Positions 5,348-35,594 of a stretch of DNA of 44,776 nt are shown here, in pieces; within the stretch, counting starts at the first letter, position 1; each line of letters opens with the position of its first letter. The notes beneath the pieces were generated by a model, which did not search any database, had not been told where the DNA came from, and saw only the letters and a program-made list of their open reading frames with translations. The DNA lies in the sequence record NC_073075; one strand, 5' to 3'. The translations under genes were made by a program, and so were the position numbers. This DNA is from Escherichia phage ZCEC10.

Positions 5348-5638
5348 ATGGATAAGCTAAACGAGTGGTTATTCGCCCTTGCGTGTCTTGCTGGTGGCTT
5401 CGTGGGCGCACGCATTCACGGCGAGGCAACGAAAGGGCCGTTGAACTTCGTTTTATATGTCGTAGTTGGCTTCCTGTGTGCCATATTTGGTGCGCCAGCT
5501 ATTGCCGAGTGGTCTGGTTTGTCTGGCGAGCGCACTGTCGCCGGTTTGGGCTTCGTAACTGCCATCTTCTGGATGCCAATCGCCGACCGGATCCGGGAGA
5601 CAATTGCGACGCTACACCTTCCGGGGGGCGCAAAATGA
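5348..5638 (+). CDS. Holin-like membrane protein
   Basis: 96 aa with two or three hydrophobic segments, immediately upstream of endolysin. Confidence 0.55.
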   Translation: MDKLNEWLFALACLAGGFVGARIHGEATKGPLNFVLYVVVGFLCAIFGAPAIAEWSGLSGERTVAGLGFVTAIFWMPIADRIRETIATLHLPGGAK

Positions 5639-6374: not shown

Positions 6375-6782
6375 ATGTTAAAAAGTATTCTTGATCATAA
6401 CGCCGACGCGCTCGCCGCGCTGGCTAAAACCGAAGACCCAGGCGCACGCGCTATTGTAGCGGATACGATCAGCCATGCGGGGGTGTTTGGCGCAAGCCTT
6501 CCGGGTCCGAAACCAGAGGTGAAAGTGACAAGCGCCACGGTAACGGTAGCTCCCGAGGCGGTTACAATCGGCACCCCGGCGAAGGCTACTGCGGCGGTAC
6601 AACCGGCAGGGGCGACCAATAAATCCGGCGTGTGGGTCAGCGGGTCGCCGACCATTGCCACCGTGGATGCTTCTGGCAATATCACGGGTAAAGCACCTGG
6701 ATCTGTCGATATTATTTGGGTGGCTAAGGATGGAAGCGGGGTGTCGGGCCGCAAAACGGTAACTGTGGCAAACGCAGAGTAA
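6375..6782 (+). CDS. Bacterial Ig-like (Big_2-type) domain protein
   Basis: 135 aa; C-terminal TVTVAPEAVTIG...ATAAVQP...TIATVDASGNITGKAPGSVDIIWVAKDGSGVSGRKTVTV matches the Big_2 beta-sandwich pattern. Confidence 0.55.
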   Translation: MLKSILDHNADALAALAKTEDPGARAIVADTISHAGVFGASLPGPKPEVKVTSATVTVAPEAVTIGTPAKATAAVQPAGATNKSGVWVSGSPTIATVDASGNITGKAPGSVDIIWVAKDGSGVSGRKTVTVANAE

Positions 6783-6787
6783 TGAGC

Positions 6788-6815
6788 AAGCCCGCCGTAT
6801 TGGCGGGCTTTTTAT
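6788..6815 (+). terminator. Rho-independent terminator
   Basis: Stem agcccgcc/ggcgggct with loop gtatt, followed by TTTTTATT. Confidence 0.75.
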
Positions 6816-6900
6816 TGTTCGACCTGCGACCAATTAATATCCCATACTGCGGTCGCCGTGATATATTGACCGCGGACAATCTGAATCAGGAAGATATGCA

Positions 6901-8043
6901 ATGCACCCGCAAACTAAAATCACCGACGAGCAATTGATCGCCGAGTTGCAATCCGGCACTACCGCGAAAGAGATTGCGAAGAAGTACGGCCTTTCCCTCC
7001 GAAATGTCTACATGCGAAAAGCCCGCCTTTCGAAGAAAGGGATTGGTCACGGCAACGATGCCGTAATCCGTAAGCGCGTTGCCGATGGCTTCGGCGTTAA
7101 GCGCGTATCCGCCCTGGTGCGCGGCAATGGCGAGGAGGTCATGTCCTGGGTCATCACCGAGCAGGACAAGGAGCGCCAACTCGAGGCAATGCGCGCCGTT
7201 GTCGAAGGGATGAACAGCGAAATCACACCGGCAGCGCCAGTAAACGCCCCGCCAGTACCGATCCAGGCGCTCGACTTACTCAACCTGTACACCGTGTCAG
7301 ACTTCCACCTGGGCATGTTGGCCTGGGGCGAGGAGACTGGCGAAGACTGGGATATGGCGATTGCCGAAGACCTGTTCTACCGCTGGTTTGTCGAAGCCTT
7401 CGCACGCGCACCAGATGCAGGCACTGCCGTAATTAATATCCTCGGTGATATGGCGCACTTTGATAGCCTTGATGCCGTCACACCTGCCAGCGGTCACATA
7501 CTGGACGCTGACACCCGCTACCAGAAACTGGTCCGATACATGATTCGCATGGTGCGCAACGTAGTCGAACTGGCGCTGCAAAAACACCACAAAGTCAAAC
7601 TGCTAATCGTCCAGGGGAATCATGACGAGTCGGGTATGATTTGGCTGGCTGAGATGTTCAATACTCTGTACGAGAACGAGCCGCGCGTCGATGTGGATAC
7701 GTCCCCTGACGTCTACAAAATGGTGCAGCACGGCAAGACCACGCTATTCTTCCACCACGGGCACAAAGCGCGATTCGATGCGATCGAGCAGGTTATGATT
7801 TCTAAATTCAGACAGGCTTTCGGGTCCAGTGAGTACAGCTACGCGCACGTAGGCCACTTGCACCACCAGAAGATTGTAGAATCCCGCAACATGATTGTTG
7901 AACAGCACCGAACACTCGCCGCGAAAGACGCATATGCCAGCCGTGGTGGTTGGATGTCCGGTCGCAGCGCAAACGTCATCACCTACAGCGCCAACTACGG
8001 CGAAGTAGCGCGCTTAACCATTAGCCCGGAAATGTTGAAGTAA
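6901..8043 (+). CDS. HTH domain fused to a calcineurin-like metallophosphoesterase
   Basis: 380 aa; N-terminal HTH (TAKEIAKKYGLSLRNVYMRKARL); metallophosphatase motifs DFHLG, GDMAHFD, QGNHDE, HHGHK, GHLHHQ. Confidence 0.7.
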   Translation: MHPQTKITDEQLIAELQSGTTAKEIAKKYGLSLRNVYMRKARLSKKGIGHGNDAVIRKRVADGFGVKRVSALVRGNGEEVMSWVITEQDKERQLEAMRAVVEGMNSEITPAAPVNAPPVPIQALDLLNLYTVSDFHLGMLAWGEETGEDWDMAIAEDLFYRWFVEAFARAPDAGTAVINILGDMAHFDSLDAVTPASGHILDADTRYQKLVRYMIRMVRNVVELALQKHHKVKLLIVQGNHDESGMIWLAEMFNTLYENEPRVDVDTSPDVYKMVQHGKTTLFFHHGHKARFDAIEQVMISKFRQAFGSSEYSYAHVGHLHHQKIVESRNMIVEQHRTLAAKDAYASRGGWMSGRSANVITYSANYGEVARLTISPEMLK

Positions 8044-8062: not shown

Positions 8063-8089
8063 CAGCCTGCCGATTTGGTGGGCTTTTTT
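8063..8089 (+). terminator. Putative rho-independent terminator
   Basis: Imperfect stem agcctgcc/ggtgggct followed by TTTTTT. Confidence 0.45.
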
Positions 8090-8094
8090 GTGCC

Positions 8095-8103
8095 TGTTAT
8101 AAT
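8095..8103 (+). promoter_or_regulatory. Possible extended -10 promoter element (TGtTATAAT) upstream of terminase small subunit
   Basis: TGTTATAAT at 8095..8103 about 70 nt upstream of the ATG at 8174. Confidence 0.35.
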
Positions 8104-8173
8104 CCCAATTAGATGGCAGGGCCGTCTCCTATGTTGCCGATGGTCGGCGCATATGCACAAAAGGGCTTATATC

Positions 8174-8725
8174 ATGGCAGAAATCAAAGTTAAGGGCCGA
8201 CGCGCCAAACTGGACGGACGAGTGGCAGTAACCCCGCGCCGTAAACCAGGCGAGCAAACAGAACATACCAATCTCGGACCTGAGATCGAATATGGCAAGC
8301 GTCGTAAAGGCGGCAAATGTGGGCGCCCTACTGACTACCGATCCGTTTACTGCGACCAGCTTCGCCGCTATTTTGCCGACGCCGACGCCTGGCAGGTAAA
8401 CTACTCCGATAAAGGCGCTGCGCAAGTAATCCCCCGCAACAAAATGCCAACCTTCGGTCGATTTGCCGCGGAAATCGGCGTGGGCGTAGCTTGCCTGTAT
8501 CGCTGGGCGCGTGCGCATGAGGAGTTCGCCGAGGCGATGGCGGACGCTATGGAGTTGCAGAAAACATTCCTGATGGAAGCTGGCGGCGTGACCATCGCGG
8601 CAGGCTTCGCTACGTTCCTACTTAAAGCCAACCACGGCGTCCGCGATGATGTTCCACTGGATGACGACGAAGATGATAACGGCGACGTCGTTGTGGAACC
8701 TACCGGCAAAGGCCAGGGTGAGTAA
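8174..8725 (+). CDS. Terminase small subunit
   Basis: 183 aa directly upstream of and overlapping the large terminase; HTH-like segment PTFGRFAAEIGVGVACLYRWARAHEEFAEA; acidic C-terminus. Confidence 0.6.
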   Translation: MAEIKVKGRRAKLDGRVAVTPRRKPGEQTEHTNLGPEIEYGKRRKGGKCGRPTDYRSVYCDQLRRYFADADAWQVNYSDKGAAQVIPRNKMPTFGRFAAEIGVGVACLYRWARAHEEFAEAMADAMELQKTFLMEAGGVTIAAGFATFLLKANHGVRDDVPLDDDEDDNGDVVVEPTGKGQGE

Positions 8726-10110
8726 TGCGTAACTATGCGGCAGAACATCGCGCCCTTGAACGAGCGATCGCAAAGCGAAACCGACCGCCGCGCCCGACAC
8801 GCGTTGCGCAGGCAGTCCGCCTTTACCAGCCTGATTGCCTTCCCCACCAGGTTGAACTACTGCGCGACACGAAGACTAAAATCCTCGGCCTGTGTTCCGG
8901 CTTCGGTGGCGGCAAGTCATGGGTTGCGGCGAGAAAGGTCATCCAGCTTCTGACACTGAACCCTGGTCATGACGGCATCGTGACCGAGCCGACTATCCCA
9001 CTCCTGGTTAAAATCATGTACCCGGAATTGGAAAAGGCGTTTGACGAGGCTGGCTTCCGGTGGAAGTTCAATAAGCAGGACAAGATTTATAGCGTTCTGG
9101 TGAAAGGAAAATGGACCCGCGTTATCTGCGAGTCAATGGAGAACTACACCCGCCTAATCGGGGTTAACGCCGCGTGGATTGTTGCCGATGAATTCGATAC
9201 CACGAAGCAAGACGTCGCGATGGCGGCATATCACAAATTGCTTGGTCGTCTGCGTGCTGGCTTGGTGCGCCAGTTCGTCATCGTGTCCACGCCTGAAGGC
9301 TTCCGGGCGATGTACCAGATTTTCGAAGTGGAGAAGGATAGCCAGAAGCGTTTGATCCGGGCGAAGACTACCGATAATCACCACTTACCGGCAGACTTCA
9401 TCGACACGCTGCGCAGTCAGTACCCGGCTAACCTGATTGATGCGTACCTGAACGGCCTGTTTGTCAACCTTACGTCTGGCGCGGTGTACAAGATGTTCAA
9501 CCGGGAGGAGAACGCCAGCACCGAAGAAGTGCAGCCGGAAGACACGCTGATTATCGGTATGGACTTTAACGTCACGAAAATGGCGGCGGTCGTGTACGTC
9601 CGACGGCAGCGCATCACCGAAAACAAGGAGTTCCGCGACGAGATACACGCAGTGGATGAATTTGTGGACCTGTTTGACACCCCGGCTATGATTGAGGCGA
9701 TCGAGGAGCGCTACCCCGATCATTGTGCTGCCGGTCGGGTCGTCGTTTACCCGGATAGCAGCGGCAAGTCCCGCAAGACTGTCAACGCATCGTCGTCAGA
9801 TATCGCACAACTGGAAGACGCGGGCTTCGAGGTGGAGTACGACAGCGTTAACCCACCTGTGAAAGACCGATTGATCGCGATGAATACGATGATGTGCAAC
9901 TCGAAGGGCGTGCGCCAGTATTTTGTCAACCTGGATAAATGCCCTACACTAGCGAAATGCCTGGAACAGCAGGTTTACGACCTGAAGAAAGGCGAGCCGG
10001 ATAAAACCGCTGGGGTGGACCACATGAACGATGCCGCGGGCTATCCAATTGCGCACCTGTTCCCAGTAATTCGTCCGATCGCCGTTGTTCCAACTGTAGA
10101 CTTCTACTAA
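8725..10110 (+). CDS. Terminase large subunit
   Basis: 461 aa; Walker A-like LCSGFGGGKSW, ATPase and nuclease layout, position between terS and portal. Confidence 0.9.
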   Translation: MRNYAAEHRALERAIAKRNRPPRPTRVAQAVRLYQPDCLPHQVELLRDTKTKILGLCSGFGGGKSWVAARKVIQLLTLNPGHDGIVTEPTIPLLVKIMYPELEKAFDEAGFRWKFNKQDKIYSVLVKGKWTRVICESMENYTRLIGVNAAWIVADEFDTTKQDVAMAAYHKLLGRLRAGLVRQFVIVSTPEGFRAMYQIFEVEKDSQKRLIRAKTTDNHHLPADFIDTLRSQYPANLIDAYLNGLFVNLTSGAVYKMFNREENASTEEVQPEDTLIIGMDFNVTKMAAVVYVRRQRITENKEFRDEIHAVDEFVDLFDTPAMIEAIEERYPDHCAAGRVVVYPDSSGKSRKTVNASSSDIAQLEDAGFEVEYDSVNPPVKDRLIAMNTMMCNSKGVRQYFVNLDKCPTLAKCLEQQVYDLKKGEPDKTAGVDHMNDAAGYPIAHLFPVIRPIAVVPTVDFY

Positions 10111-33562: not shown

Positions 33563-33592
33563 AAGATACTGCAACCAACCTATTGGTTGCAA
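33563..33592 (-). promoter_or_regulatory. Putative sigma70-like promoter (TTGCAA-18-TATCTT, minus strand) inside a palindromic TGCAACCAA..TTGGTTGCA element
   Basis: Minus-strand -35 at 33587..33592, -10 at 33563..33568. Confidence 0.4.
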
Positions 33593-34050
33593 GTGAATTT
33601 TGCAACGTTTATCGCATAAATTTTCGGGACCAGATCGCCGCACGCCCGACGAATTGCCGCGATGTTCTTCGGACAGTCTTCAATGATGACCAGTTCCGAC
33701 ACGTCCGCATAGCATACCATTTTGAACACGGCGCACGCCTTAAACTCTGGCGGCGGGGTGTCGTCCAGCATGTGGCGCATAAACAACCGGCCGTTCGGGA
33801 ATACTTCCAGTTGCTCGGCGGTGGTTTCCCAACATTCGCGCTGCCGGTTGGTCAGGTACGCGATCTCGAAGCCTTGCTCTTTGTACATGGTCAGCAGCGG
33901 CAGCATATCCATGTTCAGATCTTCGCGTATATGCGCTTTGTGCCACTTCGCCCAAAAGGTGGATTTTGTTTTTATGCCCGGAACCAGGTCGGCACGCGCA
34001 TCGCTTGAACCGTTAATAACGCCATCCAAATCGCAAATCAGTAGTTTCAT
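33580..34050 (-). CDS. HAD-superfamily hydrolase-like protein
   Basis: 156 aa; N-terminal LICDLDGVI matches HAD motif I (DxDG); Thr and Asp motifs downstream. Confidence 0.6.
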   Translation of the reverse strand: MKLLICDLDGVINGSSDARADLVPGIKTKSTFWAKWHKAHIREDLNMDMLPLLTMYKEQGFEIAYLTNRQRECWETTAEQLEVFPNGRLFMRHMLDDTPPPEFKACAVFKMVCYADVSELVIIEDCPKNIAAIRRACGDLVPKIYAINVAKFTCNQ

Positions 34051-34280: not shown

Positions 34281-34737
34281 TCTCGCTCATTATTTCAATT
34301 TGTGCGCCGCCGCTGGGCGTCGCTTCGTCAAATATTATTAATTGCTGGCACTTGTTATTGCTCGGCCCGACTTCACCGGTGACAGCGTGTATAAATCGGA
34401 TACGCCAGTCCAGCAGAATTATCAGGTTTGCAGTCTTCCGGGCCAGCTTCGCCCACTTCGTCGACGTGTCCTGATTAAGTAGCATGACGGTCCGGCGTCC
34501 GTGCGCTGCGCACTTGACCCACGGCAGTGGATCGGAATACGGCGGGTTGCACCACTTCCACCCTTTCAACTCTGACCAGTCCACCTCAAGCGCGCTGTGC
34601 TCTGCCGTGAAGTAACGCGGCAGCAGGTGGTTTGTGTCGCTTGCCGCCATATCGTAACGGAATCGGTACTTCCGCCGAAGCGGTTTAAATAAAGCTGGCG
34701 GCGTGCGCCAGCTATCCTTCTGCTCACTCTTCTGCAT
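34252..34737 (-). CDS. DNA N6-adenine methyltransferase (phage Dam-type)
   Basis: 161 aa; WRTPP near N-terminus and catalytic CNPPYS motif. Confidence 0.8.
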   Translation of the reverse strand: MQKSEQKDSWRTPPALFKPLRRKYRFRYDMAASDTNHLLPRYFTAEHSALEVDWSELKGWKWCNPPYSDPLPWVKCAAHGRRTVMLLNQDTSTKWAKLARKTANLIILLDWRIRFIHAVTGEVGPSNNKCQQLIIFDEATPSGGAQIEIMSESELHEYLNR

Positions 34738-35188
34738 GGTCGGTGTCTATCGCATACAGGGCGATTTTATTGCCGGTCTTGAGAATGCGTTGCACGCGCT
34801 TTGTCTCCTCGACACTAAGCGGGCGCGCGTCCGGGTAGAAGCTGCCATTTGTAGGGTTGCGCCACGCCATAAGCACCAAATCTTTACGGTCAACCTTAGA
34901 CTGGCGACCCTTCGGACGCACGTACTCCTCGGCCCGTTTGCAATGCTCACGCAGCCCGTCGGCAGTGATGCGGTTTAGTGCGACGCTGGTGGTGTATCCG
35001 GTGCGCTGCATAATCCCCATCAATTCGAATAGCAGTTCGAAGCGCTCCTCTAATTCCTTGCGCATCTTCTCCTCGCCTTCATAGCTCGCCAGGTAGGTAT
35101 CCGCCAGCGCGTTCGCACGTTCGGCCTGTTCGCGGGCTTCGAGGCATTGCGCGGCCCAGTAATTTTTCTCTTCTTGTAAAATTTTCAT
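34724..35188 (-). CDS. Hypothetical protein (154 aa)
   Basis: ATG at 35188 with GGAG RBS directly downstream of a promoter; longer track ORF to 35299 lacks an RBS. Confidence 0.55.
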   Translation of the reverse strand: MKILQEEKNYWAAQCLEAREQAERANALADTYLASYEGEEKMRKELEERFELLFELMGIMQRTGYTTSVALNRITADGLREHCKRAEEYVRPKGRQSKVDRKDLVLMAWRNPTNGSFYPDARPLSVEETKRVQRILKTGNKIALYAIDTDHAEE

Positions 35189-35236
35189 CGTGTCGTCTCC
35201 AGGTATTAAAAAAGGGCGCCCAAACCGGACACCCTC

Positions 35237-35265
35237 AATATACTGCAACCAATCTAATTGTGCAA
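35237..35265 (-). promoter_or_regulatory. Sigma70-like promoter (TTGCAC-17-TATATT, minus strand) with two ATTGGTTGCA copies
   Basis: Minus-strand -35 at 35260..35265, spacer carrying ATTGGTTGCAG, -10 at 35237..35242. Confidence 0.5.
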
Positions 35266-35270
35266 CCAAT

Positions 35271-35594
35271 TTACGAATAAAAATTTGGGTCGCGCGCAAC
35301 GTCTACCAGATACAGGTTACTAATGCGGTTGCCGTAATGGCCTGGTGTGCGTTGACGGCACACTACGGCATAGCCTGGAGGGATTGTATTGCCAGTCTCA
35401 ATAATCCACGCCACGCGTGCGCCAGACAGCGTCTTGCCGTTGCATTCGATACGAGTACCGCCATCGGCGGTATTGAGGTTGCCAATCTTGCAGCCTGTGG
35501 ACTTCAGACGAATGACGCCGGTTTTGCTGTCGTAGGAGAATAACTGGTTAGTCATTGCGACCGAAAAATCGATGGCTTCGAATGTAGTGTTCAT
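35271..35594 (-). CDS. HNH/AP2-like endonuclease-related protein, possibly degenerate
   Basis: 107 aa; YDSKTGVIRLK...GARVAWIIETG...NRISNLYLV resembles the HNH_3 pattern but lacks a clear catalytic His. Confidence 0.4.
   Translation of the reverse strand: MNTTFEAIDFSVAMTNQLFSYDSKTGVIRLKSTGCKIGNLNTADGGTRIECNGKTLSGARVAWIIETGNTIPPGYAVVCRQRTPGHYGNRISNLYLVDVARDPNFYS

Follow-up and report, generated by a model that had tools for sequence, protein, structure and literature searches.

In coliphage T5, the protein A1 combines an N-terminal GcrA-like DNA-binding domain with a C-terminal predicted nuclease. A1 is a pre-early gene situated in the terminal repeat, is also required for second-step DNA transfer, and has been reported as largely confined to Demerecviridae. 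A factor of the A1 type is defined as necessary and sufficient for the degradation of host DNA and as toxic on expression. In mycobacteriophages, Gp48 of A10ZJ24 (homologous to Bxb1 gp47) displays phosphodiesterase and DNase activity, is toxic, and degrades host DNA (PMC12287305). Other relevant members of the metallophosphoesterase (MPE) superfamily are the nucleases Mre11/SbcD and, on the phosphatase side, lambda NinI, a Ser/Thr protein phosphatase of the PPP family.

The window considered here is the whole stretch of 44,776 nucleotides from Escherichia phage ZCEC10 (NC_073075). Its open reading frame 6901..8043 (+) encodes a protein of 380 amino acids in which a helix-turn-helix (HTH) is joined to a metallophosphoesterase domain. 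GenBank record OK310512.1 (Escherichia phage ZCEC11, Dhillonvirus) shows 100% identity to the window over the 1.5 kb tested, rotated by 3,560 bases, and lists the same frame as UJQ87862.1, "calcineurin-like phosphoesterase superfamily domain protein". Both gene and family are already known, being annotated in the deposited record and catalogued since the T1 genome annotation. A first-pass annotation of the DNA had described an HTH fused to a complete metallophosphoesterase motif set, standing alone between a terminator and a possible terminator just upstream of the terminase. This observation on gene and architecture is accurate: the motifs DFHLG (134), GDMAHFD (182), GNHDE (239), HHGH (285) and GHLHH (318) are all present, hairpins with T runs are found at both flanks, and the gene for the small terminase (PHROG 3064, E=2e-73) comes next in the 3′ direction, followed by that for the large terminase at 8725..10110. 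The coordinates of the features are collected in Table 1.

Table 1. Features of the HTH-metallophosphoesterase gene and its flanks in the window, and HNH genes next to family members in other phage and prophage loci (L numbers).
Feature	Coordinates	Strand	Remarks
Intrinsic-terminator-like hairpin and T run	6788..6815 (hairpin 6788..6810)	+	10-bp stem with 7 GC pairs, then TTTATTGTT
Extended -10-like promoter element TGaTATATT	6859..6867	+	about 35 nt 5′ of the ATG
Ribosome-binding site AGGAAG	6888..6893	+	7 nt 5′ of the ATG; read from the sequence
N-terminal three-helix HTH	6925..7035	+	residues 9-45 (AlphaFold2)
Beta-hairpin and long helix	7090..7221	+	hairpin residues 64-88, motif KGxS...WVKT; helix residues 90-107; conserved, family-specific
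Proline-rich linker	7222..7260	+	residues 108-120; poorly conserved, no secondary structure
Metallophosphoesterase catalytic domain	7261..8040	+	residues 121-380; motifs I-V; no further domain
Intrinsic-terminator-like hairpin and T run ending the gene	8064..8090 (hairpin 8064..8084)	+	9-bp stem, then TTTTTTGTG
HNH genes 3′ of family members	L002 42028..42510; L004 6159..6659; L006 11290..11847; L009 9199..10299; L016 4510..5019		

Some labels around the gene deserve comment. The frame 8075..8725 (+), which gives the PHROG 3064 match, is labelled "terminase large subunit" in GenBank, yet its relatives carry a small-subunit annotation; its likely true start is at 8153 or 8174. On the other side, 6375..6782 (+) follows the endolysin gene and encodes a 135-aa Ig-like-domain protein annotated as "major tail protein", the first 49 residues of which match PHROG 11068. 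Most Dhillonviruses have unrelated sequence at this place and homology returns abruptly at about 6856, which locates a mosaic junction near this position.

An alignment of 102 homologs with identity down to 27% was used for conservation analysis and for an AlphaFold2 model, which is confident (mean pLDDT 89.1, pTM 0.77). In the model, the HTH is followed by a short helix and by the hairpin, with strands at residues 64-73 and 79-88, in which S70 and W83 do not vary and K85 hardly does; for the region of beta-hairpin and long helix no specific structural match was found. The catalytic domain has the MPE beta-sandwich fold and the five motifs D134-x-H136, G182-D183, G239-N240-H241-D242, H286 and G318-H319-x-H321, all invariant in the 102 homologs, as are the metal ligands D134, H136, D183, N240, H241, H286, H319 and H321. 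Further invariant positions are specific to the family (W83, E145, H186, D202, D204, R206, R262 and D343). The loops 139-151 and 187-205 have lower model confidence yet are highly conserved, a behavior that may mark them as substrate-contact loops.

The HTH is the least conserved part of the protein and is swapped between lineages. It weakly matches GerE/LuxR and sigma-70 region 4; a profile search of the PDB returned marginal GerE and Mre11 matches only, and a single-sequence PDB search spurious repeat-protein matches only. Distant relatives whose N-terminus falls off the family profile still have an HTH there, of LysR, Fis or sigma-region-4 type and sometimes in tandem, which suggests that DNA binding is kept while the specificity module is exchanged.

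The protein matches PHROG 704 ("DNA repair exonuclease", a label that is itself based on homology) with E=1.2e-161 and 539 bits, residues 5-380 corresponding to profile positions 2-390 of 390. Members of this family include ST16 of phage T1 (YP_003929.1), Jerseyvirus gp23 and gp21 of Kagunavirus K1ind2, which share 44-76% identity with the window protein across the entire length and the same HTH-hairpin-MPE architecture with no structural difference. Genomic position alone differs: in Dhillonvirus the gene adjoins the terminase, in T1 it precedes the lysis cassette, and in Guernseyvirinae it lies within the tail module. Homologs were detected by tblastn in 2,061 of 50,697 phage records, with at least 80% of the query covered in 1,668 of them. 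A word-seeded search matched 3,649 cluster representatives; an exhaustive profile search yielded 6,276 clusters (50% level) at E<=1e-3 and 2,329 at E<=1e-30, almost all of 375-420 aa and matched over the full length. About 150 Dhillonvirus genomes have copies with 92-100% DNA identity; in this genus, as well as in Drexlerviridae (PMC13164509), the gene has near-core status. The Pfam models PF00149 and PF12850 score just under their gathering cut-offs (20.7 vs 21.5 bits and 22.8 vs 27), which points to a divergent MPE clade; some relatives do reach the cut-off, e.g. P0497 with 25.1 bits. Experimental work on the PHROG 704-type HTH-MPE family was not found in the literature.

Which branch of the MPE superfamily the catalytic core belongs to was addressed by three kinds of comparison. 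The ranking of fold neighbours is led by S. aureus SbcD and T. maritima Mre11 (14.5 each), followed by the PolD DP1 proofreading exonuclease (14.4), MJ0936 (13.9), LpxH (12.9), the cyclic-nucleotide and diester phosphodiesterases Rv0805 and GpdQ (11.8), and PPP protein phosphatases (8.3-8.9). Foldseek places E. coli SbcD and T. maritima Mre11 on top, with purple acid phosphatases and GpdQ at nearly the same E-values. In profile-to-sequence comparison (hhalign), SbcD gives the sole non-trivial alignment (E=4e-4, motifs I-III), against E=0.016 for Bxb1 gp47 and E=0.41 for lambda NinI. On these three grounds the core leans, not decisively, to the DNA-nuclease branch. Class III cyclic-nucleotide phosphodiesterases (CpdA, Rv0805) and GpdQ are not the closest fold or sequence neighbours among the MPEs, and the protein has neither the PPP-type signatures (GDxHG, GDxVDRG, GNHE) nor the PPP fold. 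The first-pass annotation had proposed such a structural comparison and had named a DNA-targeted nuclease and a second-messenger hydrolase among the possible activities. The comparison favours the former, SbcD/Mre11 standing first with a lead that is not decisive, and leaves the latter unsupported (11.8 vs 14.5).

The protein is nevertheless not an Mre11/SbcD orthologue. About 186-190 residues can be aligned with E. coli SbcD (4m0v), S. aureus SbcD (7dog) and T. maritima Mre11 (3qg5) at 12-15% identity, out of 319-362 residues in these targets. In contrast to Mre11/SbcD, the window protein has no capping domain, its chain closing with the final MPE-core strands at residue 380, and no Rad50/SbcC-binding helices; it carries the HTH-hairpin module at its N-terminus instead. 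A Rad50/SbcC gene was not found in the 44.8-kb genome or in the sampled contexts of the family.

T5 A1 (AAS77051.1) resembles the window protein in having an N-terminal DNA-binding domain and a C-terminal MPE-like nuclease domain, and it contains all five MPE motifs (D304-x-H306, D340, N396-H397, H476/478 and H501-x-H503). Unlike the window protein it is 556 aa long, with a middle region of about 240 residues and different motif spacing, and there is no significant similarity between A1 and the HTH-MPE family (hhalign E=0.14, motif III only; no significant domain in hmmsearch). We regard A1 as an architectural and probably functional analogue of the family, as distinct from a demonstrated homologue. 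The MPEs of cluster A mycobacteriophages (A10ZJ24 Gp48, Bxb1 gp47, L5 gp54) are likewise phage-encoded, standalone and without Rad50, but they comprise about 255 aa and no HTH, and their similarity to the family is not significant (hhalign E=0.016, motifs IV-V only). The Bxb1 RefSeq record NC_002656 (L010 7876..8788) labels gp46 "recombination directionality factor" and gp47 "metallo-phosphoesterase"; the published directionality factor of Bxb1 is, as we take it, gp47, the metallophosphoesterase itself.

The hairpin upstream of the gene (Table 1) closes a block of lysis and Ig-domain genes. Alignment of four Dhillonviruses shows conservation beginning sharply at CCGTG(G/A)TATATTG, with unrelated sequence further upstream (before about 6856); the segment AATCAGGAAG at the ribosome-binding site, the start codon and the downstream terminator hairpin are all kept. 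A consensus scan found no full, canonical sigma-70 promoter, and the extended -10-like element may act as promoter, judging from its sequence. Given this conserved promoter-like element, ribosome-binding site, start codon and downstream terminator, the gene looks like a self-contained promoter-gene-terminator cassette. In three other Dhillonviruses (L018, L019, L020), a perfect inverted repeat CCGTGG-N8-CCACGG flanks the promoter-like TATATT box. The window has a degenerate version of it at 6857..6876 and, instead, a 16-bp near-palindrome ATTGACCGCGGACAAT (6865-6880). Such repeats at the promoter-like box could serve as an operator, perhaps one through which the HTH regulates its own gene. As a candidate for operator or HTH target, ATTGACCGCGGACAAT itself was rejected: with 8 matches in the genome against 5.3 expected it shows no enrichment, other Dhillonviruses do not conserve it, and the region upstream of T1 ST16 lacks it. 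Overlapping and just past the downstream terminator, 8075..8103 (+) contains TTGGTG-17 nt-TATAAT, which is invariant in four Dhillonviruses and was not flagged by the consensus scanner; this is a possible promoter for the packaging operon.

Adjacency to the terminase is specific to Dhillonvirus. In T1, ST16 follows dam, precedes an HNH gene and the lysis cassette, and has its own terminator. In Guernseyvirinae, the gene forms an opposite-strand island within the tail region; what comes after it is either HNH or a Pnkp-phosphatase together with a P-loop protein. In the Autographivirid mellemsur it lies between T7-type exonuclease and endonuclease genes on one side and Pnkp-phosphatase and MazZ-like genes on the other. 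A Campylobacter phage has a family member near RusA and DNA ligase, lambdoid prophages have one in the nin region (a neighbourhood that some members thus have in common with NinI) beside NinG/Rap and near the recombination genes Erf and YqaJ, and in alphaproteobacterial prophages and a Vibrio phage it adjoins endolysin genes. What recurs across these contexts is an association with the metabolism of DNA and nucleotides, at the boundary between early and late genes. Three side observations concern these contexts. T1, a Jerseyvirus, a Vibrio phage and two prophages each have a free-standing HNH endonuclease gene directly 3′ of the family member (Table 1), which fits homing endonucleases targeting a highly conserved gene. 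In three phages that are otherwise unrelated (L005 11230..11595; L009 7508..7999; L014 5329..5907), a protein with a dGTP_diPhyd_N domain, known from MazZ-type dATP/dGTP pyrophosphohydrolases, is encoded no more than two genes away from the family member. Finally, a Novosphingobium prophage with a family member (L006) encodes, about 5 kb away at 5368..5607, a protein with the Acb2/Tad1 hairpin domain, which belongs to an anti-CBASS/anti-Thoeris sponge family.

The gene, its domains and intact active site, the distribution of the family, its fold neighbours and its gene contexts are established by this analysis. We tentatively propose, as the reading we prefer though hold at somewhat under even confidence, that the protein is a DNA-tethered, Rad50-independent two-metal nuclease, plausibly one that supplies nucleotide salvage by degrading host DNA; what we infer here is that it acts as a nuclease, that its substrate is DNA and that its target is the host chromosome. 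Expressed from its own small promoter-gene-terminator cassette, the protein would be kept on double-stranded DNA by its HTH, aided by the conserved beta-hairpin, and the C-terminal MPE domain with its complete, invariant metal ligands would cut DNA phosphodiester bonds without a Rad50/SbcC partner. Its most probable task would be the breakdown of the host chromosome during takeover, feeding nucleotide salvage. T1-like, Dhillonvirus, Jersey-like and related phages would thereby have in it their counterpart of pre-early A1 in T5 and of the Gp48 MPE in mycobacteriophages.

On the other hand, a Rad50-independent SbcD/Mre11-like nuclease might act on the phage's own DNA, at ends, hairpins or stalled intermediates, while this DNA replicates, recombines or matures from concatemers; its HTH would read a phage-specific site. 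The fold evidence for this is identical to that for host DNA. Neighbouring genes (NinG/Rap, Erf and YqaJ in the lambdoid nin region, RusA and DNA ligase in the Campylobacter phage) and the lineage-swapped, least conserved HTH, a pattern to be expected from co-evolution with a phage-specific site, suit an own-DNA target and a host-DNA target equally well. The window phage has a Gam-like "DNA recombination nuclease inhibitor gamma", so that a phage replacement for inhibited host nucleases is conceivable, and the mycobacteriophage MPE (Bxb1 gp47, L5 gp54) is required for phage DNA replication. Still, a target site was not found, the upstream palindrome being neither enriched nor conserved in relatives, and the protein has neither capping domain nor Rad50 partner. 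A role on the phage's own DNA is the main rival reading, yet we consider it unlikely.

Quite improbable, in our opinion, is a regulator whose HTH would bind phage or host promoters, or RNA polymerase by virtue of a sigma-region-4-like fold, with the MPE domain serving as protein phosphatase or as ligand-sensing or -processing module in a switch to late expression. Its position at the early/late boundary, adjoining lysis and packaging genes in many lineages (PMC13164509), would agree with such a role, as would the weak HTH matches to GerE/LuxR and sigma-70 region 4, the inverted repeat overlapping the gene's own promoter-like element, and the annotation of homologs as "transcriptional regulator" by some depositors. 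Two narrower candidates were rejected. A late-gene regulator analogous to Q was suggested by a Microbulbifer prophage in which the gene precedes those for lysis and terminase; in a related lambdoid phage, Phage_antitermQ is a separate gene two genes downstream of the family member. The same lambdoid phage has a separate NinI-like Metallophos gene, no NinI alignment is obtained, and PPP fold scores are low. Equivalence to Q or NinI is ruled out, as both genes are present separately in one lambdoid phage.

A very improbable reading is that of an end-healing enzyme, a 3′-phosphatase or 2′,3′-cyclic phosphodiesterase comparable to the MPE domain of Clostridium thermocellum Pnkp, which would join phage Pnkp-like and ligase-like proteins in repairing defence-cut RNA or DNA. 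Genes for "polynucleotide kinase" do lie directly 3′ of family members in Kagunavirus, an Autographivirid and many Drexlerviridae. The window phage itself encodes matches to PHROG 415 "polynucleotide kinase" at 33580..34050 (-), with a HAD phosphatase-like domain by Pfam, and to PHROG 10530 "DNA ligase" at 34724..35299 (-), both hypothetical in GenBank and, on profile matches, hinting at a nucleic-acid end-repair capability. However, the neighbouring "polynucleotide kinase" is the HAD 3′-phosphatase half of Pnkp (Pfam HAD_PNKP, E=7e-20 and 1e-14), hence 3′-end healing is already supplied, and the idea of an end-healing partner for a kinase-only Pnk is weakened. Moreover, lambda-phosphatase-like folds, among which the CthPnkp MPE domain belongs, rank low, and the Pnkp-like and ligase-like genes of the window phage are about 26 kb distant.

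The least probable reading is that of an anti-defence phosphodiesterase destroying the cyclic nucleotides or oligonucleotides that serve as immune signals in CBASS, Pycsar, Thoeris or type III CRISPR, a speculation of the first-pass annotation for which no positive evidence emerged: nuclease folds rank higher, the HTH retained across the family has no obvious role with a soluble small-molecule substrate, the gene is near-core in Drexlerviridae and Dhillonvirus, unlike typical anti-defence genes, which are accessory, its neighbours are DNA-metabolism genes, and a link of the HTH-MPE family to defence evasion or escape was not found in the literature. Acb1 and Apyc1, phage enzymes known to degrade such signals, have other folds. 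The protein itself matched no PADLOC defence-system HMM at E<=0.01. In an escape-mutant study with SECphi4/18, no mutations were reported in the HTH-MPE gene.

Returning to the proposed host-DNA nuclease, within the window the gene adds nothing to the existing annotation, and its biochemical function is a reasonable experimental question. In several groups of lytic coliphages and of phages infecting Salmonella and Klebsiella, few non-structural genes are as persistent as this one, and its carriers are common in therapy and in the testing of defence systems (T1, BASEL Drexlerviridae, SECphi4/18, Jersey-like phages). A bolder form of the hypothesis, which we put forward as a doubtful possibility, is that the family in T1 (ST16), Dhillonvirus, Jerseyvirus, Kagunavirus, Webervirus and some N4-like and T7-like phages is the long-unidentified nuclease that degrades the host chromosome in T1-type phages, the counterpart of T5 A1. 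Its interchangeable HTH might then discriminate host from phage DNA, and the protein could trigger bacterial immunity as A1 does with retron Ec67. If the family is indeed a host-chromosome nuclease, this would explain host takeover and nucleotide supply in the carrier phages, would bear on their transduction potential, which is an issue of therapy safety, and would single out a protein that is probably toxic and might be sensed by immune systems.
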